A stretch of DNA of 64,000 nt from Amoebophrya sp. A120 (GCA_905178155.1 CAJINV010000001.1:4302233-4366232); one strand, 5' to 3'. Shown: positions 22,001 to 55,920, counted from the first letter of the stretch. Numbers and translations are program-made. The notes: generated by a model from the letters alone, not told the origin.

Positions 22001-25000
22001 CGGCGAGCGGGCGACCCAGGTATTCCAGCGCTTGTCCCTGCGTCGCGTTGTTCCAACTGAAAGAATTGCCAAACACGGCCGCGACGCTGCCGGCGAAGTT
22101 TTTCTCCACTTCCAGGCATTTGATCGGGTCCCAGTGGTTTTCGCCCGGAAAGTTCCGCAACCGCGTGGAAATCACGCTCGCGCGGTCAAAGACCCGCGCT
22201 TTCGTCAACTCACGGAGGTACGCAATTTCGAAGTGCGTCTGCTGCCAGTCGTGCAGCAGGTACTGGAGGTTGAGATCGGTGGGTGGTTGGCCTAAATTCT
22301 GCACGAGCGCCATTTCCCTCTCCTCCGGTTTGGAGAAGTCGGCCTCGATTTGCGGCAGAATTTCTTTCCTTTGTTCCAAAAAGGTCTTCACCGTGAACAT
22401 CCTGCGCTGCAAGTCGTGCACTTGCTCGGGCTTGACGTGCAGGGCAAAGACGTTGGCGTACACGTCGAGCATCTGCTGAAATTTGTCGACATCGTGACCG
22501 TACGTCATCAACGGATGTGGGACTTGCGTTAAGACCGGGTCCTTCACCTCGCAATCGGTGGTCGAGTTGCGCGGTTCCAAAAAGCTCCGGATCGCGAGGT
22601 AGTGGTAGCTCGCGCCGCGGCCCTGATTCTCCGTCGGCTCAAAGGATTGCAGTAAATCGCTCGGCGCGAAGTTGTGCCAGTTGTACGTGAAAGAACCGTC
22701 GACGAAGGGCGTTTTTCGGGGCAGCTTCCGCGAATCGGTGCTCGCAATTCCAGTTTCCGGCAACGGGAATAAAGCTCGCTCCCGCGACCGGGCTTGGCAG
22801 ATCGGGTCATTGCGCGAAAACTTGTAGTTCTCCGGGTCGAAGGCGTTTGCGTGAAACGTCGCGTAGGTGTCCAGCGTGCGGGGCTTGTCGCGTCGTTTCA
22901 AATACCAATTGGGAAGCGTTTTTGCTTTTTTCGTTCCAAGCAGGCCGGCGTTATAGTCAAGACTTTCGTTCTCTGTTGCTTTTTTCTCATGGAGTGTCGT
23001 CTTCGCTTTTGCAGTGTTTACCTGATCTTCCTCCACCGCAAAGAGGGAAGATACGTAGTGATTCCCGAAGGCCTTCTCCTGTACTGGTTCATCATCTTTG
23101 CGGGAGGTGATGAGCTTATTCTTGTCTTTATTTCCAACCGCTGTTTGTTTGTCCCCCGTTCTTTTCGCCATCCCGCCACTAAGCCCGCGCTCGCGAAACA
23201 GGCTGTGATCGCTGGCTTCGCCGAAGTACTCTTCCGTCAGTTCCCCGTCGAGGAAGCTGCTGCTCAGCCGCTTCTGGTTTTCTTCAATAGCCTTCGACAG
23301 CGGCGGGTGCGCCACGCGTAGCATCTTGCCCTGAAACCCGTTCGCGCCGTTCAACCAAAGGCCTTCCTCGAGCGCTATGCTGGCGTCGCTGTCCACAACC
23401 GCAAGAGACCGAGAAAACTTCGTCGCAGGAGGAGGGTTGTTGCTGTGTTGGATAGAGTTCAACATCTTCACAGAAGTTGTTGGTTCTTCTTTCAGCCGTT
23501 TCAACTGCTGCACCAGCAAACTTCGCTGTTTCTGCACCAAATCCTCCGTCTGGATACTGTCGTAGTGCGTGTGGTTCAAGAGAAACTGGTAGAACGGCAC
23601 CAAGCCGATTTGCGAATTCACGGGGACGGCGGCGGCGCGACCCGCGTCGCGGACGATCATCGCGAGGCCGGACAAAACCGCAGTTGCAACTTCCCGCAGG
23701 ACCACCAAATACGTGTGCACGGGCTGCAGGTAAAGCTTGCTGTATTCCATGAAAAACTTCTGCTCCGGGTCCTGTTCCAGCTTGTCCGCAAGCACTTTCA
23801 CTTCTTTCTTCAAATCCTGAAAGTCGCGGTCGATGTCGAGCTTGAGGAACTCCCCCTCCTTGGGTAGAAAGTCGTCCGGGAGTCTCTTTTTCACTTCCTT
23901 GTCGTCGATGTCCTCGTCGGTAGCGATGATGCCCTCTTTCAGCAGTCTCGCCAGCCGCTGCCGCCGCTCCACCCGTTCGTCCCGGACCTGTTGCCGCTTC
24001 TTTTCCGTGAACCCCGGGGACACGTACTGGTCGATCAGGCCAAAGCATCGCAAGAAAAAAGCGCTACAGGTACAAAAAAATTGTGTTGCAGGAGACGCAA
24101 GACAGACAACCTTTGTCATGCAGGAAATGCTTGCGAGCCTCGTTTCCTACGTATTTTCCCTCAATGTGATCTTTGCATTACAAGTTTTCTCTGCCACACA
24201 GAGAAAATTTGTGATGCAGAAACTCCAACAAATGTGTAACTGTAACACTTTTTTCTCGTGATACAAAGTCGAACGCCGCCTGCAAGGCCCGGTCGCGCAG
24301 CCCGACGTGCTTGGGCACGCGGTTCTCCAACACGTGCAGCACAAAGTCCAGGGACTCCACCGTGGCGTTGGAAGTGCGGAAGTTCTGCCGGTTCTCGTAC
24401 ACCACCCGGAACAGCTCGTGGTAGTCGCGGAGGTAGGCGGCAAGGTCCTCGGGAAATTCGAACAGCGCGCGGAACTGGATATCACACGGCTCGACCACAC
24501 CATTCAGAATGGGTTTTCGAACCTTGGGGCACTGGAGAAGATTCTCGACCGTGAAGGGAGAGGTCGAAGTGATTCGAATATTGTTCATCGGGGAAACTGT
24601 AGTTTCTGTCACTATTGGTGTTGCAGGACTATTGTTTCCGCTTCCCGTGCTGGGCGCCAACAACATCTTCTGATGCCTCTCCTTCCTGTCGAACCGGGGG
24701 TCATACCGCAGGGTGTTCGTCCCTACATCTGTTTGCTCCTTGAAAATGTCGATCAGTTCCACGTTCCAAATCGGCGAAAAATGCGCGTGGCGGTCCGCTT
24801 TCTTCCGCATTTCCACCGTTTCCGGTAGATTCGCCTCCGACAGATCGTACAATCTGGGCCCGTGACTGGGGTCGACGGCCGCATGTATCGGGTTGGACAT
24901 GCCGAAATCCGACAGCGTCCGAGGTTTTCCGGTATCGTTCACCTCTCTTTTCCGTTCTTCGACAATCGTTTTTGGTGCCTCAATGAAAGTGCTGATAAAC

Positions 25001-34147: not shown

Positions 34148-37100
34148 CTACATGAGAACCCGGTCGAGCACATCCTCCACGGACGCAAAAGCTCCCTTCG
34201 ACCTTTGGCGCACCAAGTCCAGTAACAGCACCAGATCCCCCATCTCTAGGCAGGCCGGAATCACCTTGCTCACGTTGCTGGGCGCCCCGCCCGCATAGTC
34301 CGCTCCCTGTTTGAATTTGACCAGCATCAAATCGATGTCGCCGCCGGAAAGGGGAAGCGGCTTGAGAAGCTTCCGAACGGAAAAACTGGAAAACCCGTTC
34401 CGGTTTGCAGACGCGATATCAGTGACGAAAGCCGCAGGGTTGGCCTTGATGTCGTCCATTTTTCGTGAGAGTGGAACAACTACCGGAAGATTTGTAGCTG
34501 CTGTAGTTGATCCAGATGTAGTTGCCGAAGAAGATAGGCGTCTCGCCGACAGCGTGCGGACGCTGAGGAGCTTTGTGGAGTAGGCCTGTTCCAGCTTCAA
34601 CAGAGTGTGGAGGAGCTGTTCGTCAAGCTCGACTTCAATGTAGTTCTTGTCCAAAAAGGAAGAAAATTCCGACTCGCTGTCTTCAAGTTCAACCTTGTCG
34701 CTGGTCTCTTCATCTTCGTCCACTCCGTCTTCTGCGTCCTCCGTGCTCTCAGAACAATCGGAAGTTGCAGCCGCGCCCTCATCTGTATCGTCCTGCTCGG
34801 TTTGTTGATTCTGGTAGTCTTCGTCATCCGCATGATAATTCGTATTGTCGGAGCGCGGTCGGCCAGAAGGATCATCAACATGCGTGTCAAGTGCTTTTGT
34901 AGTCGGTGACCACCCAGACACAGAATCGACGACAGTACCCGGAACAGTTTCTCCTCGCTGCTCTGCACTGCAAGCCCCTTTGACCGACGTTTTTTCCTTT
35001 TTGTTTTTTCTTTTTGCTGCTGGCGTAGTTTTTCCACGTCCTCCGCTGCTATTTGTCTCGATCACGAAGCCGACTGCTTTTTTCTTTAAATTCATCGTCT
35101 TCGGGCCGCGATTCTTCTTTCTGTTGCCCTTGCCACCCCCCTTCTTTTGCGGGGCGGGGTAGCCCGCAAGTTGGTGCACGATGTGCAATGCTCCGCGGAT
35201 CAGCTTGCTTTTCACCTTTTAGTCCACAGGCCCCTCGTGATGCGTGTGTGGGAGATGGTGCTCCATGCACCGACACGGCTTCACCTTCACAACGCTCTGC
35301 TCTACAACTGCACCGGCCGCTGCACCAGCGTTGGTGATTTCTGTCGCTATCGGAATGACCTCGTCGATTGACAAGCTCGGACTGTTGTTCACTTCCAGCA
35401 GGTGCATTTTCATTTTCTGATCAAGGAGCACGTCGAATCCAAGTATTTGAAGACAGCGACAAGAAGAAGACGAGTTCTTACTGTCTTCCCGTCCTACTGC
35501 CCCTGGTCCTCGTCCCGCAGCCTCTTGCACCATTTCAAACGGCCTCGCGGACGCCAACAGCACTGGCGTCATCACTGTGACCCATTGGGAAACCACTTCG
35601 GAAAGTTGTTCCCAAAACTCCTCTTCGTCGAACGTATCGGGATACTCCTCGGCCAGCTGCTCGAGTGTTATCTCCAAGGACCGCTTCGTTGCCTCTCGTT
35701 CGGAAGATGTCTTGACCTCCTGGGGTTCCTCGGCAGCTGCAGACCCTGCTTCGTCAGTTGTATGACCGACAGCTCTGCTGGCATCCGGTGGACAAGTACT
35801 ACCCGCATTATGAACTACCTCGTCGACGACAGTTTGCTTGTGCTCCGCAGGGGAATGGGAAATTCGACTTCTCGGTGACATAGAGGCTCTATCGTCCTTC
35901 GCAGGTGCAGCTGCAGCGGCACGCGAAACCGGTACTACTACTAAAGCACTCTCCGTGGTCGTGACAAGCACATCTCCCTCTCGCACGTAGCCGGCTTGCC
36001 GCTTTTGAATCGAGTAATTCGTCAGGTGCTTCTGGCTGTTCGTCATGTTTTTTGCGTTCGGTTTCTCGTACTTTTCCGTGCAAAACCGGCCCAGGCCGTC
36101 CTTGCACAGGAAGACTCTCGGTTTTACTTCTTCCCCAAACAGACCCCCGATATGGAAGTGTCAGGATCGAAATCGACAAAATTGAAATATTTTGTCATGC
36201 ATAAAATGGATTCCAGTTCGAACCCACTTTCTAAGTGGCGCATGACAAATTTTGGTGGTGCCTTAATGCTGTTTAGGCAAAGAAGACTGATTCTCTCATG
36301 CTGCTTTAGCAGCTCGTGCTATAAGTAACCCCAAACAGGCTTACAGTCGGCCTCACTTGCCTGCTCTGCAACACACGTATTTCGAGTCATGCATTTTATG
36401 CATCACAAGTTAGCAGATTTTGTCGATTTCGATCCTGACACTCCCATACCCGACCACGATCGCGTACACCCGGAGATCAAATTTGAAACCGTTGAGAAGC
36501 AAAGGACTTTTCACATACGACTGCACCACCGCAGCCTTGCAGTTTGACGCCTTCAGTTCCAAGTCGCGAAATTTATCGATCAGGAAGATGCCATCGCCCT
36601 GCGAGCCGTCTTCCGGCTTGACGATCAAAGTCTTTTTCTTATTTAAAACCCGCTGGATCTGCTCTCCATCTTCCGGCCAAACGTATGATTTGGGAATGAA
36701 CTTCTGCAACGCGAAAGGTGCTGTAGTAGCGCTGGACAGAACGAATGTGCTGTCTCTATTTCCAGCGAGAGCTCCTTCTGCGCTAGTACCATTTTCCTGA
36801 TCCTGTTCGTCGTCATCTTCGTCCTCATAGTACTCTGCACCTGAGTTCTTCGAGGAGGTCGTGGCCGCTGCAGCTTTCCCTTCTATCTTGTCCTCCGGCC
36901 CCTTTAGCAATTGCTCCACCCGGCGCAGCCACCGGGTTTGGTTGCACTTTTCGCACAGGTCGCCCATTCCCGGGTACCGCGAAAGCCAACAATTTGACTT
37001 TTGAAACACCTGCGGTAGCTGCTCGAGCCATTCGTAGCTCTGCATCACCAGGCAGATAGAGTTGTTGCGCACTTTTTCGGTGACCAGGAGCCCAATTTCG

Positions 37101-38541: not shown

Positions 38542-41500
38542 CTACTTGTAGAGCAGCAACTGGTTGTCGTTTACGCTCTCCAGCGTTGGCCTGCGCTCGC
38601 CGCCACTGATGGGCCTCTTTCCACCCTTTTTCCGCGTTGCCGCCTGCTGTGCGGGCCCGACCGCGCCCACTGCGACGCCTAAGGGTGGAAGCCCCCCGGC
38701 GTCGAGCTGCCCGCCACCGATGACGGCATGGCTCACCCCGCCGGTTTTGCCCGGACGCGTCGAGGGCTGCTGCGCGCCGCTCGACTTGCGGCTGTTCGGC
38801 TGGGTGGGTTGGTGGGCGGAAACAGGGTTCAAGACCCCGACGTTAGTATCCTCAGTAAAAACGTACCCACACCAGAGTCAAGATGGCAAATCTGCTAGAC
38901 AAATCAGCCAGCTTTGGTCGTTTGGCATGACAAGTTCCTCTTCGTAGTGTAATCCTGTTTAGGTAGTTCAGCAGCTTCACAGATCTAGTATATCATTCTT
39001 ATCAAACAAAAAAAGTTCGTCACGATCACTTATGCGCATTTTTGCAATACAAAATTTTCTGTCATGCGTAAAAATGCATAACAGCCAAACTTCATAAGGG
39101 ATTTCCCTAGTGTTTCTGCAATACAAGGAAAATTTGTGGTGCGAATAAAAATTTGTAATGCAAAACCTGCAAGTTAGTGACTGTGACAAACTTTTTTCTT
39201 TCCATAATTCTGATTGTAGCATCACAAATTCCAAAACACGACTAGACAATGCCTCTCATGGCGCTCCGCATGACAAACCTTTTTGGCATGCAGATTTGCA
39301 TGACAACTCTGGTGTGGGTACGTTTTTACTCAGGATAGTTAGGCCCGGACACCCCGAACACCTTGTTGTAGTTCTGCTCGCGGTTGACTAACTCTAACCG
39401 GTATCAAATGCAAATATGTTTGAGTCTGGGAGATTGCGAGCTTTGTCATGCTAGTGCGGCATGACGCTGAGGTCTGTATTGCGTGGCCGCGAAGAGCTCC
39501 TCTTGCCTGTCATGCAAAAACGTAGTTTCTCATGCAGAGTACGCAACTCAGAACCACGGAAAAACTTGTCATGCTGACCAGCGCATTTTTACAGTGCACT
39601 CAGCTCACTATTTTTCCCTTTCTTGCATCACAAGTTTCCAGACCCAGACACATTTGCAATGCATAACCGGTAGTACTGCATCTCGTCGCGCAGCTGGTTG
39701 AACGCGGTTTCGCGGTCCCGGCACTCCTGGTGCAGTAGACGGATTTGCTCGACGTCTTCGGGCCGGGACGGTCGGTTCTCGAACATTTGCTGCAGCTCCA
39801 AGATCCTGGCCCGCAGTTGCTCCCCTTCGGCCTCAATGTCGGCGCGGATCTGTTGTGCAGCAAAAGCAATGGTTTCGTTTAGACTCTTACTGATTTATTT
39901 GATGCCTACTGATGAAACACTCTCGGTATCGTACTACATCGTTTGCTTATCGTTCACTACAACAAGCTCGAAGTAATTCGGATACTCTCGTACTAAGTAT
40001 CTCGGTAGCCTCGTGATTTGAAAGAAAAGAGAAAGCAAAGAAAGGAAAAGAAGAAAAGAAAGAAGAAGAAGAACCTCGATGGTGAGACTGGCTTTCTTTT
40101 GCAATCAGGTGCTGTTTACGAAGAATAAAAACCTTCCCCCGGTAGGTATCTGGACACGATACCTCTAGGCTTCGAGAGTCTGTTTGTTCGTATATCAGTC
40201 GCATTTTACGAGATCTTAGCATGGTAGCGGAGTTTTAGGCTAATCACCTAGGATCCTCCACAGAGCCCCCCGGCTGTAGAAAAAATTTACTTGTCTCAAG
40301 CTTTTTAGGGCCTACCGTTTTCGCACTGTTTAAACAAAACCAACACCATGGAACGCAGCAGCGGGAGCAGTAGCAGCAGCGGACACAGCAGTGGACGCAT
40401 TCCGGTGCCGGTGTGGACCCCGACAATGGGCCCACGGGAGTGGAAGGAAAAACTCCAATTGTGGTTGCTGGCATCGGAGTTATCGGAACATTTGATCTGC
40501 CCCACCATCATGCTGCAAGGCATCGAGCCCAACCATTACCATCCCCTTTTGGTTCGCCAACTTTTACAAATGGACCCGCGCACCTGGACCATGTCCATGA
40601 CCCCGGACTACGAAGGCAAGGAAGGAGAAGACGCCGACTGGATTTCGGGCATTCGCACCATGACCCCGGTGCAACGCTTAGAACGTGCGGTGACGTTTTT
40701 GGAACCGGTCGACGGGTTGGCCGAAGAAAAGCGCTACCGCCGGGTAAGCACTTTCGAACGGAAGGGGAACGAAGACTACCAAACCGCAACCACCCGCTTC
40801 AAGGCTTACGTGGTTGACCAGAAAAACGACCAGCGTCCGATGGATGAACGCGCGATCGTATCCGCCTACTTTTCGGGGATGCGTTTCGACCTGAACGATT
40901 CCAAGACGCTGCGCAACCACTTCGACTTGGCGAAATCGGGACAGGGAGAACACACGTTCCGCCACCTTTGCCAGCTGGTCGAAACTCTTTTGGTTCCGAC
41001 CTCTTTGGACCGCGCGGGAAACCGGTACGACCGACAGGGGGACGCGATTATGGCTATCGCGGGTTTGGCACAGATCCCGCGCTGGAAGGGAAACGGCAAG
41101 GGCAAGCACGGACGGAACGGTGGCAACGGCAAGGGAAACGGAAACACGAATTTTCAGTACAAACCCCAACAACGCAATGGTGGGAAACCGACCAAGGCCG
41201 GCGGGAAAGGAACGGGCCAGGGACAGAACGGCGGAAAGCCGCAGCGCAACGGCGGAAACGGCAAGGGCAACGGAGGTACGAAAGGCGGCCCCGGTGTTGG
41301 AAAAGGGAACGGAAACGCGGCGAAGTGCTGGATTTGTGGTTCCAACCAACACCTGCGGAAATCGTGCCCCCACCGTGGAAACGGCAGCGCGATGCTGGCC
41401 CAGGATGCTGACGCCGACGAGACGGAACATGCGGCCTGACTATCCCCACCGAAAACCGATGGAAAGTATGAAAATTTGAAGATGGACGATTTGCATCTAC

Positions 41501-44500
41501 GACGCACCCCGGTGGCGAATGAAAAAATCTCAATTATTCCGTGTCCCGAATCCCGATGTCTATGCAAGAACGAAAAAGCATCTATCGACCTGAATTCCAA
41601 TGGTAGGACGAAAATCAATCAATCCCTGCAAGCTTTGAAAAATTTGAAGACCGGTGCTGTTGCGACCGAAAAAAAAAAGCAATCCGAGAATCCGCATGGT
41701 GTTACGATGAAAAATTTGATGATGAGCCCCACCATTTTGGGAAAAATTTTGGAAAACGGAACCCCCCCGCCGAACCCCCAGACAAAGTCTACAGCCGCGG
41801 GCGGACGATTCGGACTGGTGTTATTTGTCCGAGCTAACCGAGGAACAAACGAAATCCTACGAAAAGTTTGCCGGGATTTTCGTTGTCGACCCGGGTTGCA
41901 GCCGCAGCCTTGTGGGCGAAGCTACCTTACAGGCCTTCCGGTCTGTGTTCCCGCATTTTGTGGGAGAAGAATTTCAACTACCAAAAAAGTTGAGTTACAA
42001 GTTTGCCGACGGCTTCACGAAAAAAGTGGAAAAAGGAGTCAGCATACAGATAGGCAGCGCCTGGCGGACGTTTGCCGTGCTGACTCCACCCGACACGCCT
42101 TTCCTTTTAGGGTGTGACATTTTGGGCGGAAGTGTAATCGATTTGGAAGGGTTTGAAATTCGAAAAGGAGAGGAAGTAATACCGCTGCAAAAACGAAACG
42201 GACTCTACGTGGTTGATTTTCTGAAAAATTTTGAAAAAATTTTCGGAAGTGAAACGGGCTACCACTACGCAAATGCCGGAACTGCTGAAGAGCTGGCGTT
42301 TTTCACGTATTCCGAGGTAAAGAAATTGCACGAGCGCAATTGGCATCTGCCGGCCAAGCCGCTGACTTTTCGATATTCCGAAGTTTTTGAAAATGAAGCG
42401 GAACGGAAAAAGTTCGAGCAGATCGCCGCGCTGGTTGTTGAAAACTGCCCGACCTGCGCCCAGCTTTTGCGCATGCAGCCAAAACCGAAATTGGGAGGAA
42501 AGAAAATTTCTGCGACGGCGCCCAATGAGTTGGTCTGCATTGACACTGTGTGCTTCGTTTGGAAAAATAAAAAGTGCGCAGTCCTGCACTTTGTGGACGC
42601 GCATAGTGGGTGGTCGTTTGCAACCATCTGCGAAACGGAATCCAGTGGGTCCGAAGTTGTTCGAGGATTGCGATTGTGGAGAAAAATCAATGGGTCGCTG
42701 CCAACCGCGATTCTCACCGACAACGGTACGGAGTTCATCAATGCAAAAGTTTTTGGCTACCTGAGTACCGTGGCAGGAGGTGTAATCCATTATCGCAGCC
42801 CTGTGCGCGAGCATGAGTTCATCTCTGAATCGCATACGCGCGCTTTGGGGATGTTGGTGGACAGGTTGTGTGGAAGTCCGGCAAGCCACTACACGAGCCT
42901 GGACTTTGTTGACATTCTGCAGGAAGCATTGGTGTGCAAAAACAGTTATGTCCGATCTTCCGGCCACAGTTCTCAATTTGTTCAATTGGGAAACGATCAC
43001 AGTCAGGACGTTTTGCGCGACCTTGCTCCTGGGCCTTCAATCGCGAAAATTTCAAAAACGGACCAGGAATTTGCTTCCCAGCGCGCGCAGCTTCGGAATG
43101 AGGCAGCAAAACTGGTGAACTTCGAGGCACAAACAAAAGGAATTTCCGAAATTTTGAACAACCAGAGCCAACACGCAAGTGCGGAATTTTACTACAATGG
43201 CGACCGAGTTTTTGTGAATGTGGACACGAAACCAGAAGACAAAACCACCGGGCGCACTCGGTGGGCTGGTGCTACTGTCGTGGGAACAAAAGGCACGAAG
43301 ACAGTAGTGGTCCAGTTCGATGATGGAACCATGAAGCAGGCGCACGCGCGAGAGTGCCGCCGCCTTCCGCCATCTGAAATTGAGGTCGTTGAAGTTTTGC
43401 CCGAAGAGTATCAAGATTTGGCCACAAATTTGGAGTCGCAGTTGTTACAAATGCAGCCAGAAGAAGAGCAAGAAAATGCAGAAACCGATGCTACGGACGT
43501 AGACAAAATTGTAGTCGATGTGATGAAGGCCAACGCGAAAAACCTGCACAGCGCCGCAGCCGCGCGCGACGACACAACCAGGCGCATGGCAGTGCAAAAG
43601 TCGCTTTTTGGGTCGGTAAAAGTGATCCAAGCTAGCTGCAGAATTGGCGCTACACGATTCGACGAACCAGTTTTGATCGCGGGCAACGCACAGGCAAACC
43701 GCGAAAAACTGAAGACCGTCCGCACGGTCCACGCGACCTTCACACCAAAGGGCAAACTGCTGGAAGTGAAATACCTAAAAGGGCCAAAAGTTATCCAGCG
43801 AGCTCAAGAACCCCGCGGCGTTTTCGATATCTGTTGTTCACGAAAATCAAGTCACTGCCGCGCGTGACCTCTCCAACTGGAGAGGGGTAAACCAGAAAAC
43901 GAAAAGCAGGGATCTGGATCCGAAGTTCTACCGCGAGGTCCCGCCCGACAAACGGAACTTGGAAAGTTTAGGAGGTTTGGCAATGGTGGAACTGCAATGG
44001 CTGGCGCACTATCTCAGTATCCCCCTGGCAGCACAAAAAGACGAATTGCTGAAGCGCATTAAGTCGCATTACGAACACACCGAGGAGCTGGCATTCTTTT
44101 CGCTTGGAGCACCAGAAGCGGAATTCGCCTACCTGTCATCTCAACAAAAGCAATCCCTGAGCCTGTTTCAAGATTTCTTTGCTGGGTTTGTTGATGACAG
44201 TACCACGCGCGCCGAGTTTTTGCCAGGCTCGCGGCCGTTCGAGCTGATCAATTCGACTTTGAATTTGCCGAGCCTTGCGGGTGTTGTGATTCGAAAAAAC
44301 TGCCAGCGCGTCCCAACAAAAACCGGTCTGGAAAAACGGCCGGAGATTCCGAATCAGCACTCAGCTACGTTCATTCTCATTCCAAACGCGCCCGCCCGCT
44401 CTGCTTCTGTCGGTGAAGCAGTTTCCAAGCGCGATCTGGTAGTGAGTTTGGTTTTTGAAGATCCCGCGTTCAAGTCTGTTCCGACCGAGCCGACGGAAGT

Positions 44501-47500
44501 CAAGGCCGAGAAAAAAGAGTCAGAAAAAATTTGGCTCAACCTGCCGCCGGAGCAGTTAGCCAAAGGAACAGTCGAGCTGGATTACAAGTGGTCTGTGCAA
44601 AACGGACTGAGTAAACTGGCGCTGGAGGCTTTTGTCAATGAGTTTGGAAGTTTGGAAAAGCGCAAAGTTTACAAAATAGTGGAGAAACCGCTTGGGCAGA
44701 AGTTGATCACTAGCCGCGTGATCTTCGCCGTGAAGTTAAATGCCGATGGGTCTCTCAAACGTGTCAAATGCCGCTTCGTGCCTCGCGGGTACATGGACCC
44801 CCGCAAAACCACTCTTCGTTTAGATCAGGACGTGGTGAGCCATGAAGGGCTGCTTTTGAGTCTCTGTCTTGCGAGCAAAAACCGATGGCAATCAAAGACG
44901 ACAGATTTTGAGACCGCCTTCCTGCAACAAAACGGATTCAAGGAAGGGGAGCCCAGGCCGTTCGTCGCCTTTCCTCAATTGCCTGAAGAGTGCGGCCCTG
45001 AGTTTTACGAAGCAATGAAATGGGAGGTCAATTCATGCTTGGAGCTGTTGATGGCACTTTATGGCTTGGTGGATGGACCTCGACGTTGGTATGTTGCCTT
45101 TTCTGACTTCCTCAAAGAAGTTGGATTTCGGCAACTAGGTGCTGACTTGGGATTGTGGGTGCTGGAACTGGATGAAAAAGACGAAGTCGTGAGGCGCCCG
45201 GACCAAGAAAATTCCAAGAAATCGGCAGAGAAAATTTTGGCCGAAGAAGTTCTGGGAACCGCTCCCATTGGTCGAATTGCTGAAGTTGTAAATCTTCACG
45301 TCGATGACAAGCTTACGGCTGGAGATAGCGCATTCGATCGGTATTGGCAAAAAGTTGCTGATCGTTTCAAGGTGGGTTCGGTCGATGACATCGATGAAAG
45401 CGGTGTCATTTTTTGCGGAAAATGTATCAGAAGAACCAAAGACGGTGGGTATGAAGTGGATCAAGAACATTATGTCGCAAAGTTCGAGCAAATTGCGGCA
45501 CCAGCAGACGCAAAAGACGAAGATCCACTACCTGCGGAATACCACACCAAGTACCGCAGCGCCATCGGGCGTTTGAACTGGATTTCCTACCGCACACGAC
45601 CCGACCTGACCTACGACACAAATTCGCTTTCTAAGCACGCTACAGCGCCGACATGGTCGCACCTCCACCAGCTCAATAAATTGATCCGGAAAACTTTGCA
45701 CAGCAGAAGCGTACGACTGAAAATACCGAAACTAGAGGGCGATTTGCAAATAGTTGCCTATGCAGATGCATCGTTTAACCGACTACAACCCGAAGCCCCA
45801 TGCATTGGGTCAATTTATTGGCTGAGTTCCATCCCAGACAAAGCCGAAACGCGAGGGGTGGACCAAGTTCACAAAATGGAGAAACCGACCGGGGCAGCGA
45901 TCAGCGCTACTGGAGTGCCGATCTACTGGCGCACGACGAGCGTAAAACGGAAATGCGATGCTATCCTGGATGCCGAAACCTTGTCGACGCAATTCGCCGC
46001 GAACGTGGCGAGATACCTCAGCGCCATCGCGATTTCCTTGGGTTTGGTTAAACCTACCGACCCTATCGTGATGCTGAACGACAACAACTCACTCGTGTCC
46101 CACCTGAAAACAAATAATCGCTGTCATAGCATGCGACTTGCAGCAAACTGGTACGGCCTGCGACAGCTTTACACGAGTGGGAGCATGGTGATTCGCTGGG
46201 TATGTGGCAAGACGCAAAACATCGCTGACGTTTTGACGAAAGGAAAAAGCCCTCTACTTCCATTGCTTTTACAAAATTTGCATCTTAATAAAATCTCCAT
46301 TCCGCGATGAGTTATTATATTTTTTCACAAATTCAGACTTTTAATTTGTCATGCTATTTTACATTCTTTTACAACTTCTTTATCATATGGTCAGCGCATT
46401 CTCATCGTGTTTCGCATTACAAATTCCGTTGACTACTACTCATACTCATCTTTTCTCCTTTTCCGCATTACAAATCTAACATTTACACTTTATTTTTTTT
46501 GACAAAATGATAATCAAGCCTCTTCCTGTAGCACCTTGAGTCAAATGATACGAGTACTCCCGTGCTGTTTTTGTTTTGCCATTTTGGCAGTTTTACGCTC
46601 TTCGATTTTATCTCACGTTCACCATTGCGATTCGGATTGTCATTGCTTTAATTTTTTTTGCTTTTCGCATGACAGATTCATCTTTTGCTTATTTTTATCT
46701 CACATTTTCAGCATCACATATTCCATATTTTCCTAGTGTTATGAATATTTTTTTTTGCTTTCTAAGCGGTGTTTGCTTCATTTCATATCATTTTGTTGCA
46801 AACTTTTACAATATTCAAATTTCCCGCATTACAAACCAACTCTTTTATTTCCCTTCGTGTCATGTTTCGCATTACAGATTTGGTTTTTATATTTCATGCA
46901 CGCACCTACATTTTTCAAATTTTTCTACTCTTTCTTCACGTTTGGTTGAGCCTTCTTACGAACTTAGGTTTTTATTTCCCTAGGTCGCTCCACATAGAAA
47001 TCTCATATAAATACTGGCCATATTTATTTTCGATTTTTCTTAGTGGGGGGAGTGATGAAACACTCTCGGTATCGTACTACATCGTTTGCTTATCGTTCAC
47101 TACAACAAGCTCGAAGTAATTCGGATACTCTCGTACTAAGTATCTCGGTAGCCTCGTGATTTGAAAGAAAAGAGAAAGCAAAGAAAGGAAAAGAAGAAAA
47201 GAAAGAAGAAGAAGAACCTCGATGGTGAGACTGGCTTTCTTTTGCAATCAGGTGCTGTTTACGAAGAATAAAAACCTTCCCCCAGTAGGTATCTGGACAC
47301 GATACCTTTAGGCTTCAAGAGTCTGTTTGTTCGTATATCAGTCGCATTTTACGAGATCTTAGCACCTACTAACTTATTTTCAGCCGAACAATGATGGCTT
47401 TACTTGTCAACCCAAGCTTTTTTCGCTCGCGCCTTCATCTGGAAGAGTAGAATAAACACCTGATCAAAACTAGTTATGACCCAAGTAGTACCTGATTCAT

Positions 47501-50500
47501 CCTCGCGACTTCGTCCTGGTGATTGGCCTCCAAGTTCTGCTTTTCTGACTCAAACGATGCTCTAATCTGTGCCTCTCGCTTGTCTGCGTCAGCCTGTGGT
47601 AAGAGTTCACGAGAACAAGCAGTGGTGCGTTGATGCATTTAGAAACGGCGAGTCGGACAACGTCCATGATCTTCCAGGATGAAAAAAAAAGCCGAACAGA
47701 CGAACGACTCATCTGAGAAGAAATTCATTATGAAGATCGATCAAAACAAAAATCTTGATGTTCTTTGCCGAATTATTACCTTCAGCCTCCTCAAGCTCTC
47801 GTCTCCTGATTGCATTAAATCTTCTATTCGCTTTTCCGAGGCTACCAAATCCGCCCGCAGTATCGCTATATCGCTCGTCAACTCGTCGATCTTGGAGGAG
47901 CTGCACCGCAGGTCTTTTTCCAGGGCGGCGCACTTGGCGTCGGTCGCCCGCTTCTCATCGGCGAGTTCCTTGTGCCGTTCCCTGGCGGCTTGCGTTTCCG
48001 CCTCGTGCTGCTGCCGCAGCTTTTCCATTTCCATCCGCAGGTTCCCGTCCAGCTGCGCCAGCTCCCCGTCGTGTCTCGATTTCAGCTGCTGCAGCGACGC
48101 CGTGTGTTGGTCCTCGAGCGCGGCAATCTTCTCCGTGAGCTCGATCTGCAGACGCGTTTAGGAGGTTTTGATACGATTTATTCTTCATAAACCCTTATTT
48201 TTACTTTTAGTGAGTAGCTCGCCGGAAAGATGAAGGACCTTTGTCTTTCACTTTCTAGTACTGTCAAACAGGAAGATGAAAACATCAATCACTACAAAAG
48301 CGTATATCACGTACGTTGTGCCGCTGCTTGACCCGCTCTAGCTCCGCGCCGTGCTTTTCGTAGATGTCCGCAATTTTCTGTTGGTGCTGTTGTGTCAGTT
48401 CCTGTACCATTTTCACTGCGTCGTCCTTGGCGTCGTTCAGCTGCCGATTCATCTGCGCCGTCATGAGGTCCATCTTCTGCTTCGCCTCCGTGGAAACTTC
48501 CCCCAAACCCCTTTCCTTGTCCTGCAGCTGCTTTTCCAAGGAATCGATGCTCTCGTCCTTCATCACTAAATTTCTTTCCAGCTCCTGTTTCTCGTTCCTC
48601 ACGAGTGTGAGATCCTTTTGCAGGTTCGTGTTGTCCTGCTTTGCCACCCGGCACTCCTCCGTTTCGCGGGACAGATCCTCGCGCATCCGCGCGATAGTAG
48701 CGGCGTGCCGTTCATCCGAGGAAAGATTCTTCGACTCAAGGTTTTGGACACGGTCGCGCGCAGTCTATGTTTTTATTTTCAGAAACCATGATTGACACTT
48801 TCATTTTCATCGCAAATCGACAAAAATCGTAATCGATTCAAGTGTACTGTAGTACTCAGCTGCAATGTGTTCTTCTACTTCTAGTACTAGTTGTTCCATC
48901 CTGATCCTGGTATCTTCTTTACTTGCGGTAATAAAGAACAGGAACAAAACTCATGATACCTTGAGTTGTTCGCCGAGACCCGCTGCCTCCGCCTCCTTGG
49001 CAGCAAGGGTCTCGCGCACCGCGTGGAGCTGCTTTGCGGTGTCGCCGCCGAGATCCTCGAGGTTGCGCCGCTTTGACTCCTCCTCTTCTAGTCGGCCCTG
49101 CAGAGTCGCCACTTTCTGTTCGAAGTCTGCGTGTTCTTTTTCCCGCGCCGCACTGGTTTCGTGGCGGTCCCGATCTCGATCGGTGATAAAGCTGCGCTGA
49201 AGCTCTTCTATTCGCTCGTTGTGCGCTTTTGTCAGTTCTTCTTTTTCTTTCGTATACTTTTCGCTCGCCGCCTCTGTCTTTGACGCAAAGTCGGCACTCA
49301 GGGACGCTTGCAGGCTTGCAATTTCCGCCTTGTGCTTTTCTATTGTCGCGTCCAGCTCCTGTTTGTGCGCTGCTTGTTTTTCTTTCAGCTTCTTCTCTAG
49401 TTCTTCTATTTCAGCTGTGTGCTTCTGCCGCAAGATGTCAATGTCGGTCTTGGCCCCACTACTGGTTTCTTCTATCTGCTTGCGCAAGGCGTCTATCTCA
49501 GACTGCAACTTGTCACGTTCCGCTCGGCTCGAGTCTCGCTCGCTCGTCAAGGTGTTTGCTTGCTCCTCCAACCGCTGTGCTCGTGTGTCCAGCTGATATT
49601 TTCATGGAAATGAAAAACGGTTGAATTTCATTGAAAGAAGCTACGCACAGACGTGCGACCATCAAAAAAACAAGTTGATGGAGAGAACCAGTAGCCGCTA
49701 CCGCTACCGAACAACAGTGTAGTACACAACGTACTCGCAAAAAATATACAAAAATTTACCTCTGCTCGCCGTTTCTCCGTTTCGCTAAATTTTTTCTCGA
49801 CCGCCTCTTTCCCGTCCTCCAGCGACTTTTTGGTTTCCTCCCAGCGCTTTTTCTCCAGCGCAAAGGAGTCTCGTAGTCTCTCGACCGTGTCCTGGGCTTC
49901 CCGGGAAGACATGCTGGCCTCGGACTTGTATATCGTAAGGAAAGATCCCCCCTCCCCATATTGAAAAGATATGTTTTCGAAAATTTGCGTTGCTGATTTG
50001 AGGTCACAAATCACATCTGTCTTGCAAGAAGAGAAGGGCAGAAGCTTCCGCCCCATTATGAAGCCGGTTTGTCATGCTGTTGGGACTACAGGGCAGCCGT
50101 TTGCCATGCTGAGCAACTAGATTCATACGCCCTTACCTACCCTGGGGATCTGGTCGCAATGCCTCCCTGCAATACACAGCTGATTTGTGTACACAAATCC
50201 AGCATCAGAAATTCTGTTTTGATATGGGGAGGGGGGATTTTTCCTCACAATATTGTAGCGCGAGAATTCTCTCTCCCGGTCGGCCGCTTTCGTCGTTTCC
50301 TCGTCTATATCAAATGTAAAAATGTCTGGGTCTGGAAGAATACGCGATTTGTCATGCAGCTTTTCCATGACCCGTGAGGTCTGGAATGCAGGACATAGCG
50401 TGACAGATTCTGTGCGATCTTTCCCATGCCTATCCTGCATGAGAAACTGCCTCCCGACTTGGTCAAAACTGGACGACTTTTGGTAATCATGCAACACAGA

Positions 50501-51663
50501 TTTTTGCATGCTTCAGATTTAGCACGACAAATTGCATTCTTCCAGACCCAGACATTTTTGCATTTGATAGTCTAGCGAGGCTTGAAGCTTCGCGACTTGA
50601 CTGCCCAACTCGGTCTTCATCTTCAGCAATTCCGCTCGTTCTGATTCTAGTCGCGACGCAGTCGCGGAACTACCCTCTCTCAGCCTTGACAAGTCTTCCA
50701 CCACCCGATCCCGGTCCTCCGCGGTCTGTTTGCGCCGAGTCTCGGTGTCCTCCAGCTCGGACTCTAGTGCCGTTTTGTCGGCGATCGCTTTTTCCAGCGA
50801 CTTTTGTTTTTCTGCGAGCTGCGAAGCCAAATTTGCACTGTTCTCGTCGCGCTCCTCTACTTTTCGCTTCCAGTCATTTTCGGCGTCGCTGCGCGCACCC
50901 TCGAGACTGCGGATCTGTTGAAATTATGGTGTGCATGATTCTTGTTGGTGTCCTTGCAGCAAAGAAATTTTCCGGCAGATAAGTATAAGTAATCTCAACA
51001 CAATCTTTAATTTTCTATTTCTCCTTGTCGTGATGTGGATTCCGGAATTATACACGACACGACGAGCAGCACAGCCTAGCACTACATCAGCACTGGACAT
51101 CAAAAATAGATTGATACTTTCGCATTCAGCAAGACTCTTTCTTCGTCCCACTTCGTGCTTTCTGCCTCCAACGTGCCCGACAACGTCGCTTTCTGGTCCA
51201 AAAGCGCCTGGCTGTGCTGGTCCACTTTTTGCTGCAAACTTCTGTCAAAGCTCTCCCGCTGCTCGCGACACCGCACCCGGAGCTCATCGAGCTCCTCGGT
51301 CAAGGTTGTGACCCGGTCGGTCCAATGTCGGAAGGACTCCTGCTCCTTTTTCACTTGGTGGAGTTTCAGGTCTTCGATCTCCTTCAGCATGTTTTGCTTT
51401 TCTGACTCCAGTTTTTCCTTCATGCCGCGACTCTGCTCCCGCACCGCCGTCTCGTTTTTTACCTTCTCAAACGCGTTCCAGGCGTCCTGGATTTTCGCGT
51501 TGCAGTTGCGGACGATCCCCTCGATCTCCTGCTCGTACGCGTTGGAAACCGACCGCAGATGCAGGTCCGCTTCGTCATTTTTCGTGTTCAAGTGGAAAAT
51601 GACCTTCGTGAGCTGCGCAATCTTCTTGCTCATCTTGTGGAAAGTGTCGTCGCGCTCCACCAT
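38542..51663 (-). CDS. FAM184-like coiled-coil protein, multi-exon
   Basis: N-terminal KMSKKIAQLTKVIFHLNTKNDE; C-terminal RPSRPEDV..YYRLELVNREQNYNKVF..PNVGVLNP, both FAM184 hallmarks. GT-AG introns (e.g. 50915-51117, 49593-49759), four introner introns and one Copia-containing intron. Confidence 0.85.
38847..39337. mobile_element. TIR element / introner in the FAM184-like gene, carrying a nested element
   Basis: 32-bp TIR TATCCT(C/G)AGTAAAAACGTACCCACACCAGAGT; TSD GTTAG at 38842-38846 and 39338-39342; removal gives GPN|VGVLNP. Confidence 0.95.
39000..39206. mobile_element. Nested TIR element (207 bp)
   Basis: Imperfect ~55-bp TIR TATCAAACAAAAAAAGTTCGTCACGATCAC.. / TATGGAAAGAAAAAAGTTTGTCACAGTCAC..; TSD ATTCT at 38995-38999 and 39207-39211. 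Confidence 0.85.
39402..39665. mobile_element. TIR element / introner in the FAM184-like gene (264 bp)
   Basis: Left end TATCAAATGCAAATATGTTTGAGTCTGG, right end CCAGACCCAGACACATTTGCAATGCATA; TSD ACCGG at 39397-39401 and 39666-39670; removal gives MQYYR|LELVNRE. Confidence 0.92.
39910..40221 (+). repeat. Copia-2 5' LTR
   Basis: Direct repeat of 47053-47364 with 3 transitions seen by eye. Confidence 0.97.
40222..40232 (+). other. Primer-binding site, tRNA-iMet type
   Basis: TGGTAGCGGAG directly after the 5' LTR, complementary to a ..CUCCGCUACCA tRNA 3' end. Confidence 0.75.
40348..41439 (+). CDS. gag: Copia-2 Gag
   Basis: 363 aa with GKG-rich repeats and a CCHC knuckle (CWICGSNQHLRKSC). Confidence 0.9.
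   Translation: MERSSGSSSSSGHSSGRIPVPVWTPTMGPREWKEKLQLWLLASELSEHLICPTIMLQGIEPNHYHPLLVRQLLQMDPRTWTMSMTPDYEGKEGEDADWISGIRTMTPVQRLERAVTFLEPVDGLAEEKRYRRVSTFERKGNEDYQTATTRFKAYVVDQKNDQRPMDERAIVSAYFSGMRFDLNDSKTLRNHFDLAKSGQGEHTFRHLCQLVETLLVPTSLDRAGNRYDRQGDAIMAIAGLAQIPRWKGNGKGKHGRNGGNGKGNGNTNFQYKPQQRNGGKPTKAGGKGTGQGQNGGKPQRNGGNGKGNGGTKGGPGVGKGNGNAAKCWICGSNQHLRKSCPHRGNGSAMLAQDADADETEHAA
41825..43867 (+). CDS. pol: Copia-2 Pol part 1 (protease, integrase)
   Basis: VVDPGCSRSLVG..PFLLGCD (PR); HERNWH..CPTC, VCIDT, LTDNGTEF (IN). Confidence 0.85.
   Translation: MSELTEEQTKSYEKFAGIFVVDPGCSRSLVGEATLQAFRSVFPHFVGEEFQLPKKLSYKFADGFTKKVEKGVSIQIGSAWRTFAVLTPPDTPFLLGCDILGGSVIDLEGFEIRKGEEVIPLQKRNGLYVVDFLKNFEKIFGSETGYHYANAGTAEELAFFTYSEVKKLHERNWHLPAKPLTFRYSEVFENEAERKKFEQIAALVVENCPTCAQLLRMQPKPKLGGKKISATAPNELVCIDTVCFVWKNKKCAVLHFVDAHSGWSFATICETESSGSEVVRGLRLWRKINGSLPTAILTDNGTEFINAKVFGYLSTVAGGVIHYRSPVREHEFISESHTRALGMLVDRLCGSPASHYTSLDFVDILQEALVCKNSYVRSSGHSSQFVQLGNDHSQDVLRDLAPGPSIAKISKTDQEFASQRAQLRNEAAKLVNFEAQTKGISEILNNQSQHASAEFYYNGDRVFVNVDTKPEDKTTGRTRWAGATVVGTKGTKTVVVQFDDGTMKQAHARECRRLPPSEIEVVEVLPEEYQDLATNLESQLLQMQPEEEQENAETDATDVDKIVVDVMKANAKNLHSAAAARDDTTRRMAVQKSLFGSVKVIQASCRIGATRFDEPVLIAGNAQANREKLKTVRTVHATFTPKGKLLEVKYLKGPKVIQRAQEPRGVFDICCSRKSSHCRA
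43959..46310 (+). CDS. pol: Copia-2 Pol part 2 (RT, RNase H); frame open from ~43779
   Basis: VKCRFVPRGY, DFETAFLQ, ALYGLVDGPRRWY, LHVDD, TRPDL, YADAS, NIADVLTK. Confidence 0.9.
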   Translation: MESLGGLAMVELQWLAHYLSIPLAAQKDELLKRIKSHYEHTEELAFFSLGAPEAEFAYLSSQQKQSLSLFQDFFAGFVDDSTTRAEFLPGSRPFELINSTLNLPSLAGVVIRKNCQRVPTKTGLEKRPEIPNQHSATFILIPNAPARSASVGEAVSKRDLVVSLVFEDPAFKSVPTEPTEVKAEKKESEKIWLNLPPEQLAKGTVELDYKWSVQNGLSKLALEAFVNEFGSLEKRKVYKIVEKPLGQKLITSRVIFAVKLNADGSLKRVKCRFVPRGYMDPRKTTLRLDQDVVSHEGLLLSLCLASKNRWQSKTTDFETAFLQQNGFKEGEPRPFVAFPQLPEECGPEFYEAMKWEVNSCLELLMALYGLVDGPRRWYVAFSDFLKEVGFRQLGADLGLWVLELDEKDEVVRRPDQENSKKSAEKILAEEVLGTAPIGRIAEVVNLHVDDKLTAGDSAFDRYWQKVADRFKVGSVDDIDESGVIFCGKCIRRTKDGGYEVDQEHYVAKFEQIAAPADAKDEDPLPAEYHTKYRSAIGRLNWISYRTRPDLTYDTNSLSKHATAPTWSHLHQLNKLIRKTLHSRSVRLKIPKLEGDLQIVAYADASFNRLQPEAPCIGSIYWLSSIPDKAETRGVDQVHKMEKPTGAAISATGVPIYWRTTSVKRKCDAILDAETLSTQFAANVARYLSAIAISLGLVKPTDPIVMLNDNNSLVSHLKTNNRCHSMRLAANWYGLRQLYTSGSMVIRWVCGKTQNIADVLTKGKSPLLPLLLQNLHLNKISIPR
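47053..47364 (+). repeat. Copia-2 3' LTR
   Basis: Follows the PPT and precedes TSD CCTAC. Confidence 0.97.
49931..50252. mobile_element. TIR element / introner in the FAM184-like gene (322 bp)
   Basis: TIR TATCGTAAGGAAAGATCCCCCCTCCCCATAT / TATTGTGAGGAAAAATCCCCCCTCCCCATAT; TSD TTGTA at 49926-49930 and 50253-50257; removal gives FSRYK|SEASM. Confidence 0.93.
50308..50569. mobile_element. TIR element / introner in the FAM184-like gene (262 bp), same family as 39402-39665
   Basis: TIR TATCAAATG(T/C)AAAAATGTCTGGGTCTGGAAGAAT; TSD GTCTA at 50303-50307 and 50570-50574; removal gives ASLD|EETTK. Confidence 0.95.
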
Positions 51664-55025: not shown

Positions 55026-55597
55026 CTTGCCTGCTTTTTTCGGAAGTTACTACTACCCGAACGAACTGCTCCAAAAACTACTCTTTTCGCCGTCGATAAA
55101 AACCGTACTGACTTCTACTCGACGATTATCTTCCCCACCAGCAATGTGGGAGGTGCTATGTTCGTTAGTCTGGTGCCGCTGTCCTCGTCGTTGTTGAAGA
55201 GAAATAATAGCTGTTGAGGGTCTAGTCGCACTTGATGTAGTTCCACTTCCTGCCACTATGTGTAGAAGCAGGTCGCTTTTTGCAATAGTCAACAACAGTT
55301 CTTCCTCGTCATCCGAGTTTTTTCGTGCTGAAGAGGCCGCACTCGTTAGAGCAGTTGCTCCAGTCGCTGCGCGGTGCGGGGGGATGAAATACAGCAGGTC
55401 GTCTGTTCTTCTACCATGAAGAAGACTCCTCCTCGTGTTCTTCTTGCTGGTAGCACTACTAGCAGCTGATGCCACTTCCTTCAGCTGTAGTATTCTGCTG
55501 TTGCGCGTTTTGCGTTGCTGGGGCGTCGCCCATCCGAAAATGGACCTCTTCCTTGGCTTCGGCTTCGAAACATGCACTTCTATTCCTGCTGCTCGTG

Positions 55598-55920
55598 TAT
55601 CAAAATGAAAAAAGCCCCCACCCCATATCAAATGGGAAATCTGTGATGCAGGATTTGTGTACACAAATGCGCGCTGTCATGCAATACGGCATCGCAACCA
55701 GATGCGCAGCCTACGGAGGGACATTTGGGTCTAGGTGCTTAGCATTACAAACGGCTGTCCTCTAGGCCCAACAGCATGCCAAACCGCTTCCATAATGGCG
55801 CGGAAGCCTCTGCGTTTGTCTTCTTGCAAGACAGACGTGATTTGTGGTCTCAAATCAGCAAGACAAATTTTCGAAAGCATGCCTTTTTGATATGGGGAGG
55901 GGGGATTTTTCCTCTCAATA
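55598..55920. mobile_element. TIR element (323 bp), inverted homolog of 49931-50252, upstream of eIF5
   Basis: TAT...ATA ends with CCCCCACCCCATATCAAA / TTTGATATGGGGAGGGGGG; TSD TCGTG at 55593-55597 and 55921-55925; internal sequence aligns with the reverse complement of 49931-50252. Confidence 0.92.

Follow-up and report, generated by a model that had tools for sequence, protein, structure and literature searches.

Why does an LTR retrotransposon carry an array of the short motif that recurs in the introners of its host genome? The question is raised by Copia-2, an element in a stretch of 64,000 nucleotides of the Amoebophrya sp. A120 genome (GCA_905178155.1, CAJINV010000001.1:4302233-4366232). 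This whole stretch is called the window, and coordinates refer to it unless a locus is named. The introners of A120 have been described as non-canonical introns that are removed from RNA, with 3-5-nt direct repeats and inverted ends of TAT, seven loose bases and an A run (PMC7789003). The original prediction held that the motif, GCAT-N-ACA, is read by a host factor co-opted by unrelated mobile elements, perhaps in order to be treated as removable introns.

The Copia-2 Element

Copia-2 spans positions 39910-47364 and is a young Ty1/Copia LTR retrotransposon. It has TG..CA LTRs, a 5-bp target site duplication (TSD), an integrase located before an RVT_2-type reverse transcriptase, a primer-binding site (PBS) and a polypurine tract (PPT). 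The following features were assigned:

39905..39909, + strand: left copy of the 5-bp TSD (CCTAC), from the sequence
39910..40221, + strand: 5' LTR, 312 bp, TG..CA, no motif, from LTR comparison
40222..40232, + strand: primer-binding site-like stretch starting with TGG, from the sequence
40348..41439, + strand: gag ORF with CCHC knuckle, ending TGA-CTA and followed by 225 codons open in frame, from translation
41726..43867, + strand: pol part 1 with integrase (rve; PF00665, E 3e-11; translation) and a motif resembling a protease, recognized by eye
43779..46310, + strand: pol part 2, Copia-type reverse transcriptase and RNase H region in a different frame (PF07727, E 6e-13)
47042..47052, + strand: PPT, from the sequence
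47053..47364, + strand: 3' LTR, 3 differences in 312 bp to the 5' LTR, from LTR comparison
47365..47369, + strand: right copy of the 5-bp TSD, from the sequence

The PBS-like stretch is presumably of the initiator-Met type; a search of 40 loci for the primer tRNA yielded no tRNA gene. The gag ORF had no match in Pfam. In both Copia elements of the window gag ends with a TGA stop that is followed by an open in-frame continuation (41437-41442 in Copia-2, 12582-12587 in Copia-1). The TGA-CTA of Copia-2 is a readthrough context. Behind this stop two +1 frame changes occur in Copia-2, and the DNA run agrees with them.

Runs X3 and X4 represent one sample which is guessed to be RNA; their contigs, here called RNA-like, skip introns that are kept by the DNA run. 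In the raw-read run X9 nothing mapped beyond an introner end. Copia-2 was found to be neither intact nor active nor multi-copy, as pol lies in two frames and the DNA depth resembles that of the unique flanks. Its depth in the RNA-like contigs was 0-3.5 compared to 57-117 for the host gene. In the DNA run the interior formed one contig with a depth of 43.7 and no differences, and the unique flanks had depths of 39.6-45. Consequently, Copia-2 is single-copy at 85% likeness. Its LTRs are 99% identical with two to three differing sites, depending on position 47284 in the 3' LTR, where the window has A and all contigs have G, so that the DNA run lacks this LTR difference. The depth over the LTR (47053-47364) reached 146, and one contig carried an extra T at 47098, which suggests a third LTR copy elsewhere in the genome. 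Over the bin of the 3' untranslated region (UTR; 46276-46939) the DNA-run depth was 63 compared to about 45 in the adjoining bins. Either part of the UTR has a diverged second copy, or sequence from elsewhere contributed short matches. Protein collections contained no close relative of Copia-2 (7 matches, 22-25% identical), and none was present in metagenome contigs or in at least 140 loci of a related assembly.

A Motif Array in the 3' Untranslated Region

The array comprises seven copies of GCAT-N-ACA, six sense and one inverted. All six sense copies begin exactly where they had been predicted. The inverted copy is likewise present, two nucleotides away from its predicted start at 46345. As proposed, the array lies in a T-rich spacer of 730 bp (33% G+C, 45% T) that separates the pol stop (46310) from the PPT.

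46311..47041, + strand: T-rich 3' UTR with the array, without introner ends or introner homology (profile and end-score tests)
46347..46354, - strand: motif copy GCATGACA, inverted
46414..46421, + strand: motif copy GCATTACA
46465..46472, + strand: motif copy GCATTACA
46667..46674, + strand: motif copy GCATGACA
46711..46718, + strand: motif copy GCATCACA
46826..46833, + strand: motif copy GCATTACA
46869..46876, + strand: motif copy GCATTACA

All motif copies were assigned from the sequence. By comparison with the count of seven, dinucleotide shuffling of the UTR (5000 shuffles) gave 0.14 copies on average and never more than 3. When any comparable gapped 7-mer was admitted, the best count in 1000 UTR shuffles was 5. 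As AT-rich controls, six RNA-defined canonical introns (1021 bp) contained no copy, and among 59 AT-rich 530-bp tiles of the related assembly without introner DNA 49 had none, eight had one, and the maximum was 4. The array is not at the background frequency for AT-rich DNA.

The spacings between the UTR sites are irregular, and N varies while the core is constant. The extended motif has a T-rich stretch ahead of the core and a RATT-like one behind it. When a matrix of the flanks, trained only on introner sites, was applied to the UTR, it ranked the six sense sites above random UTR positions (p 3e-4 for the 5' side, 5e-5 for the 3' side). Thus, the UTR sites represent the same extended motif as those of the introners, and the claim that introners and an LTR element have the motif in common holds for core and flanks. 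The motif may resemble the Sox-Oct composite site and RBFOX or ApiAP2 words.

The Motif in Introners

Introners were recognized by TAT..ATA ends, a 5-bp TSD and, mostly, an A run at positions 11-15. The ends of the window introners agree with the A120 consensus (PMC7789003). Eight introner spans, listed without strand, were delimited:

3651..3886: introner, 4 motif copies, the outer ones 43 nt from each end (ends, TSD, motif scan)
24046..24263: introner with imperfect left end, delimited by hand, 3 motif copies (motif scan, profiles)
36151..36448: introner in a TTL-family gene, 3 motif copies (ends, TSD, motif scan)
38847..39337: introner enclosing a nested introner (39000-39206), 7 motif copies in total (each with its own 5-bp TSD)
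39402..39665: introner, TAT..ATA, 5-bp TSD, 4 motif copies (ends, TSD, motif scan)
49931..50252: high-copy introner, 1 exact motif copy (contig depth, ends)
50308..50569: high-copy introner, 1 exact motif copy, its end used as probe for related loci (contig depth, ends)
55598..55920: introner, 3 motif copies (skipped in RNA-like contigs, kept in the DNA run)

From the last of these, the RNA-like contigs drop the introner together with exactly one TSD (55593-55920, 328 nt), which restores the pre-insertion sequence. The most identical match of the TTL exon of the host came from Amoebophrya sp. A25, with 77% identity across 17% of the query sequence. The eight spans contain 26 motif copies in 2414 bp (10.8 per kb), and the UTR has a density of 9.6 per kb. 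In the remaining 60.8 kb of the window 2 copies were found where 5-6 were expected; this depletion in host DNA is not significant (p 0.06-0.15).

The survey was extended with a 28-nt introner end from one family as probe, which retrieved at least 140 loci from one related assembly (626 kb when merged). In these loci the motif was present in 373 of 388 TAT..ATA elements with perfect TSD, and the element finder returned 9 elements instead of 388 on reversed sequence. After redundant and long calls had been dropped, 365 elements remained. They fall into 53 families and into 18 groups without shared sequence once the motif is masked. The motif occurred in 17 of these 18 mutually unrelated groups.

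In 11 families the fixed motif positions diverged from the column majority in 5.2% of the alignment cells, compared to 28% for N and 21.5% for the other internal columns, the cells not being mutually independent. Measured from the introner end, the first inward copy is found at 32-33, 40-44, 52-55 or 60-65 nt. These distances are phased: for 47 family modes, which are likewise not mutually independent, R was 0.50 at a period of 10-10.5, a value reached in 0 of 20000 draws from a smooth null. Sites of the same orientation are spaced with a peak at 31-33 nt. The UTR sites of Copia-2 fit the helical phase of the introners only loosely.

The strand of an introner relative to its host was inferred from open frames and could be called for 182 of the 365 elements; these have 253 sense and 299 antisense sites. 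A family with one-directional sites had 9 sense and 8 antisense insertions, and one of 12 families tested displayed an orientation bias (15 versus 4, p 0.02). Motif mismatch rose from 2.8% in younger (n=298) to 4.7% in older introners with mismatched TSD (n=52), TSD mismatch being a coarse clock of age. Under the same split the conserved internal columns went from 5.5 to 7.4%, a loss equal to the 1.9 points of the motif. Conservation, the 10.5-nt end phase, strand freedom and decay after insertion thus fit a site in duplex DNA that would act at the time of mobilization, and not a splice signal. Like subterminal sites, the introner copies are conserved, repeated and at fixed distance from the ends. 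In Copia-2 the array lies at least 488 nt from the element end, where a fixed end distance does not apply.

Three side observations were made in these loci. In coarse classes, 279 of the 365 introners have a coding-like context and one lies in clearly non-coding DNA; introners may therefore target exons. Three of 20 runs of at least 11 A have the motif and an introner end 2-4 nt later (L046:15346, L031:1090, L032:2411). In the L031 and L032 cases the other half of the introner was not found, as if a poly(A)-tailed sequence had been inserted beside the site. L012:2635-6090 encodes a C-5 cytosine DNA methylase split across two ORFs, which is relevant if the motif has a role in anti-silencing.

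Other Retroelements and Motif Clusters

Copia-1 (10109-17492) has a UTR of 81 bp without an array and one motif match in its coding part. Its LTR contains several AAATCACGAT repeats, and its 864-bp leader lacks the introner motif. After masking of the introners, the at least 140 related loci retained 126 motif sites in 443 kb, including nine clusters of 3-4 sites. For unmasked DNA of the related assembly, the comparison was 124 sites with 44-47 expected. Clear introner ends were detected at three clusters (L025, L016:4563, L020), and two clusters in L017 were borderline. The clusters in L005, L031, L043 and at L016:3377 had no introner ends. The cases of L005, L031 and L043 mean that motif-rich remnants can arise without a retroelement.

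The cluster at L016:3377, found by searching for motif clusters, consists of three sense copies of GCATTACAAATT 210-408 nt past the stop of an ORF piece. This ORF resembles the end of an integrase, since 7 of 30 Atlas matches belong to PF18697 (retroviral integrase C-terminal domain, score 0.92). Searches of the ORF against Pfam, for homologues, against PDB sequences and solved structures and against viral contigs gave no match, and a single-sequence fold was uninformative (pLDDT 51). The insertion is rearranged, bounded by 35-bp repeats and without LTRs, and a PBS-like stretch lies upstream of the ORF. The spacing of its sites did not fit the helical phase of the introners. Judged from the sequence, the array quite probably belongs to a Gypsy-like 3' UTR. 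The original prediction had asked for the array in other families of transposable elements; a Gypsy-like fragment would provide it, on the sense strand past the integrase stop, while Copia-1 does not.

In a wider view, L016:1181-3746 represents an insertion of composite structure, probably within a host exon, and has three target-like repeats of 35-59 bp. Its PBS-like stretch is at 2161, and a 23-nt match to an introner interior is at 2453 (E 0.01). Three viral contigs with an 18-nt match proved not to be introners. At the variable position, 7 of 10 retroelement sites have T compared to 207 of 1109 introner sites. Among the 213 ORFs of at least 200 amino acids in the related loci (32 shadow ORFs left out), no other reverse transcriptase, integrase or transposase family was detected.

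Origin of the Array

The alternative that survives best is that an ancestor of Copia-2 captured introner DNA long ago. Its ends would have decayed, local duplications would have multiplied the motif, and the sites would be useless to the retroelement. We regard this as rather unlikely. The equal site density in UTR and introners speaks for it, as do runs of 5-6 same-orientation sites in 18 of the 365 introners. Two UTR sites are alike at 19 of 21 nt, and C stands at -1 in 5 of 7 UTR sites compared to 4 of 26 introner sites, as local duplication would give; such duplication probably helped to build the array. Moreover, the 53 families sampled are to be compared with 1954 reported (PMC7789003).

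The region 46316-46512 looks like a TAT..ATA element, its sites lying 31 and 40 nt from the ends. As a decayed introner it was rejected, because it has no TSD and scored at shuffle level (p 0.36). End scores around the UTR sites in general were at shuffle level (p 0.36-0.42). The enclosing-pair end score of the UTR was 8.6, where random DNA has a median of 7 and true elements reach a median of 53. Against the 53 family profiles the UTR reached a best score of 7.8 bits, whereas the eight window introners scored 200-301; with one of the profiles the UTR outscored each of 200 shuffles (6.0 versus 5.7 bits). Thus, neither TAT..ATA ends with A run and 5-bp TSD nor homology to any of the 53 families was found in the UTR. 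A decayed inverted-repeat element inserted in this copy only, against which the prediction had been weighed, is also contradicted by the 99% identity of the LTRs. A later insertion would still be recognizable, and so the array was presumably inherited through reverse transcription.

At 20-30% neutral divergence the computed probability that a 7-nt core survives is 0.08-0.21. Seven perfect cores amid unalignable spacers are hard to reconcile with neutral decay. The second retroelement-like fragment with the same arrangement, L016, also argues against a single captured introner.

A quite improbable alternative places the motif on RNA. A Gag or other particle protein would read it as a packaging signal, and introners would be packaged, reverse-transcribed and integrated by the LTR machinery. 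Both retroelement arrays lie on the sense strand of a 3' UTR, and introners and Copia-2 alike make 5-bp TSDs. The strand test in introners rules out a role in splicing, not one in a donor RNA. In addition, no transposase was found in A120 according to the accessible text of PMC7789003. On the other side, phasing at 10.5 nt relative to the element end is a sign of duplex DNA, and introners have no visible PBS, PPT or direct repeats. The UTR sites have no common fold and no match to an Rfam family, and the probability that two elements agree on the strand is one half.

The Array and the Host Intron

The idea that elements with the motif leave as introns because a host factor recognizes it was compared with the position of Copia-2 in its host gene:

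39666..39883, - strand: predicted host exon downstream of the Copia-containing intron, open frame
39884..47403, - strand: predicted GT-AG intron of a host coiled-coil gene enclosing the whole antisense Copia-2 (frame open across; RNA-like contig depth fits)
47404..47438, - strand: predicted host exon of 35 nt upstream of this intron, open frame

The predicted intron measured 60 nt before the insertion of Copia-2 and measures 7520 nt now. When it is taken out together with two introners, the host frame remains open. The RNA-like contig of the host gene extends 1450 nt beyond 48315, and its bin depth of 21.5 fits two small exons (23.8), not LTR read-through (88.5). The Copia-2 UTR was barely covered in the RNA-like contigs. 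Copia-2 resides antisense in what is predicted to be an ordinary GT-AG intron, and a role of the motif in making it removable is not needed.

Removal as an intron is supported by the skipping of introner 55598-55920 in the RNA-like contigs and by the present length of the host intron (7.5 kb). Presumably, GCAUNACA fits the branch-point pattern yUnAy. Also in its favour, U1 is reported missing (PMC7789003). Against it, the six canonical introns have no site, 35 of the 182 strand-called introners have no sense copy and 31 have no antisense copy, no orientation bias was seen overall, and the exact motif is missing from 12 of 365 introners. The motif also decays after insertion, and the predicted intron around the antisense Copia-2 has its own GT and AG. 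This part of the original prediction was not borne out, and we consider it very improbable. A branch point or splicing enhancer, for which generally one sense copy near the 3' splice site is expected, was rejected on account of the free strand and the absence from canonical introns.

It is just as improbable that tandem slippage in a hypervariable 3' UTR made the array and that its match to the introner motif is a coincidence: arrays of short sites are frequent in retrotransposon UTRs (Sirevirus, PMC2829016) and direct-repeat families of 16-26 nt centre on the UTR sites, but the top word of the UTR is the introner word of the genome, flanks included, and the array has an inverted copy, a variable N beside a fixed core and irregular spacings.

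Comparison with Known Systems

Several short direct and inverted sites inside the element ends are needed for recognition in other transposons, among them the Tn7 TnsB sites, the En/Spm TnpA repeats and the Ac subterminal repeats. By analogy, the introner motif may work like such subterminal arrays of transposase sites, which are family-specific as far as we are aware; we know of none arrayed in the UTR of a retroelement. Repeated short sites in the untranslated part of an LTR element occur in the gypsy Su(Hw) insulator. Sirevirus LTR retrotransposons possess multiple PPTs and RM boxes, repeated sites upstream of the 3' LTR (PMC2829016). The Copia-2 array is also made of untranslated repeats; its units, however, are distinct from the PPT and match a different class of transposons within the genome.

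The closest likeness is to the VANC motifs of Arabidopsis VANDAL elements, which are 8-9 nt long, dense and in one orientation in non-coding element parts, and rare elsewhere (PMC5735166). VANC6 motifs also occur in the unrelated AT9TSD1 family (PMC5735166). GCAT-N-ACA is similarly dense, of the same orientation in the array, non-coding and common to unrelated elements. VANC is an identified protein with ChIP and EMSA support (PMC5735166), whereas the protein for GCAT-N-ACA is a predicted one. VANC motifs form part of tandem repeats, and the accessible text mentions no end phase (PMC5735166); here the spacers are unrelated. Unlike in the pair VANC6/AT9TSD1, DNA transposons have the motif in common with LTR retroelements here.

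For A120, introner family 38 has been filed as Ginger-like, with 5-bp TSDs, TA/TA termini and ORFs homologous to Copia and Gypsy; according to its authors it lacks Ginger homology (PMC12130899). TDD-4/5 have 5-bp TSDs and a Gypsy-like integrase, and Ginger termini are TGTNR (PMC2836005). The introner termini are TAT and not TGTNR, no transposase was seen, and the 5-bp TSD matches Tdd only. The accessible parts of both sources describe no cis motif common to Ginger or family 38 and LTR elements (PMC12130899, PMC2836005). GCAT-N-ACA was not found in the accessible text of the papers searched; logos in PMC7789003 (Fig. 3, S25) might display part of it. In its accessible text a dinoflagellate introner preprint makes no mention of Amoebophrya.

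A Probable Shared Binding Protein

We favour, with a probability of about 0.6, the reading that one protein, probably of the introner mobilization machinery, is also recruited by retroelements. The motif would be a double-stranded-DNA site for one predicted binding protein that engages introner ends in helical phase. Introners would likely need this protein to transpose, its role being in mobilization and not in splicing. The Copia lineage would likely recruit the same protein through the 3' UTR array. Perfect cores, unalignable spacers and the presumed inheritance through reverse transcription suggest that selection keeps the sites in this lineage. A shared protein site is thus the best reading of the sequence pattern, and in this respect the idea of a factor co-opted by unrelated elements may stand. 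The accompanying premise that a transposase site is of no obvious use to an LTR element was put too strongly, given the Ginger-like A120 family with LTR-homologous ORFs (PMC12130899).

At slightly better than even odds, we would guess that an element and not the host encodes the protein, which might then be a Ginger-like transposase related to integrases or else an accessory protein. This slight lean comes from the almost site-free host DNA of the window and from the Ginger-like family with LTR-homologous ORFs. As a further guess, the retroelement might gain integration help or an escape from silencing, as AT9TSD1 responds to VANC6. Counting against the shared protein, Copia-2 is a single copy without a close relative in the protein or metagenome collections, Copia-1 is arrayless, and L016 is a rearranged fragment that was found via the motif.

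Significance

An array by itself is ordinary; what counts is its match to the introner site. The accessible text of PMC7789003 reports no internal or common motif, no family-specific inverted-repeat motif and no transposase in A120, and it argues against a general transposase-mediated mobilization. Unlike that view, a motif which is family-independent and phased to the ends points to one shared introner machinery. A conserved, helically phased site in 17 of 18 introner groups argues for the same and could serve as bait for the protein. Upkeep of the site in retroelement UTRs would mean that Class I and Class II elements have a cis site in common. In the closest precedent, VANC6/AT9TSD1, no LTR element is involved according to the accessible account. 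In a bolder and doubtful version, one integrase-related protein would bind GCAT-N-ACA, mobilize the tens of thousands of introners that make up the non-canonical introns of the genome, and descend from or be supplied by LTR retroelements that keep the sites in their UTRs. If this were true, introners would be exploiting, as parasites, the machinery with which retroelements integrate.
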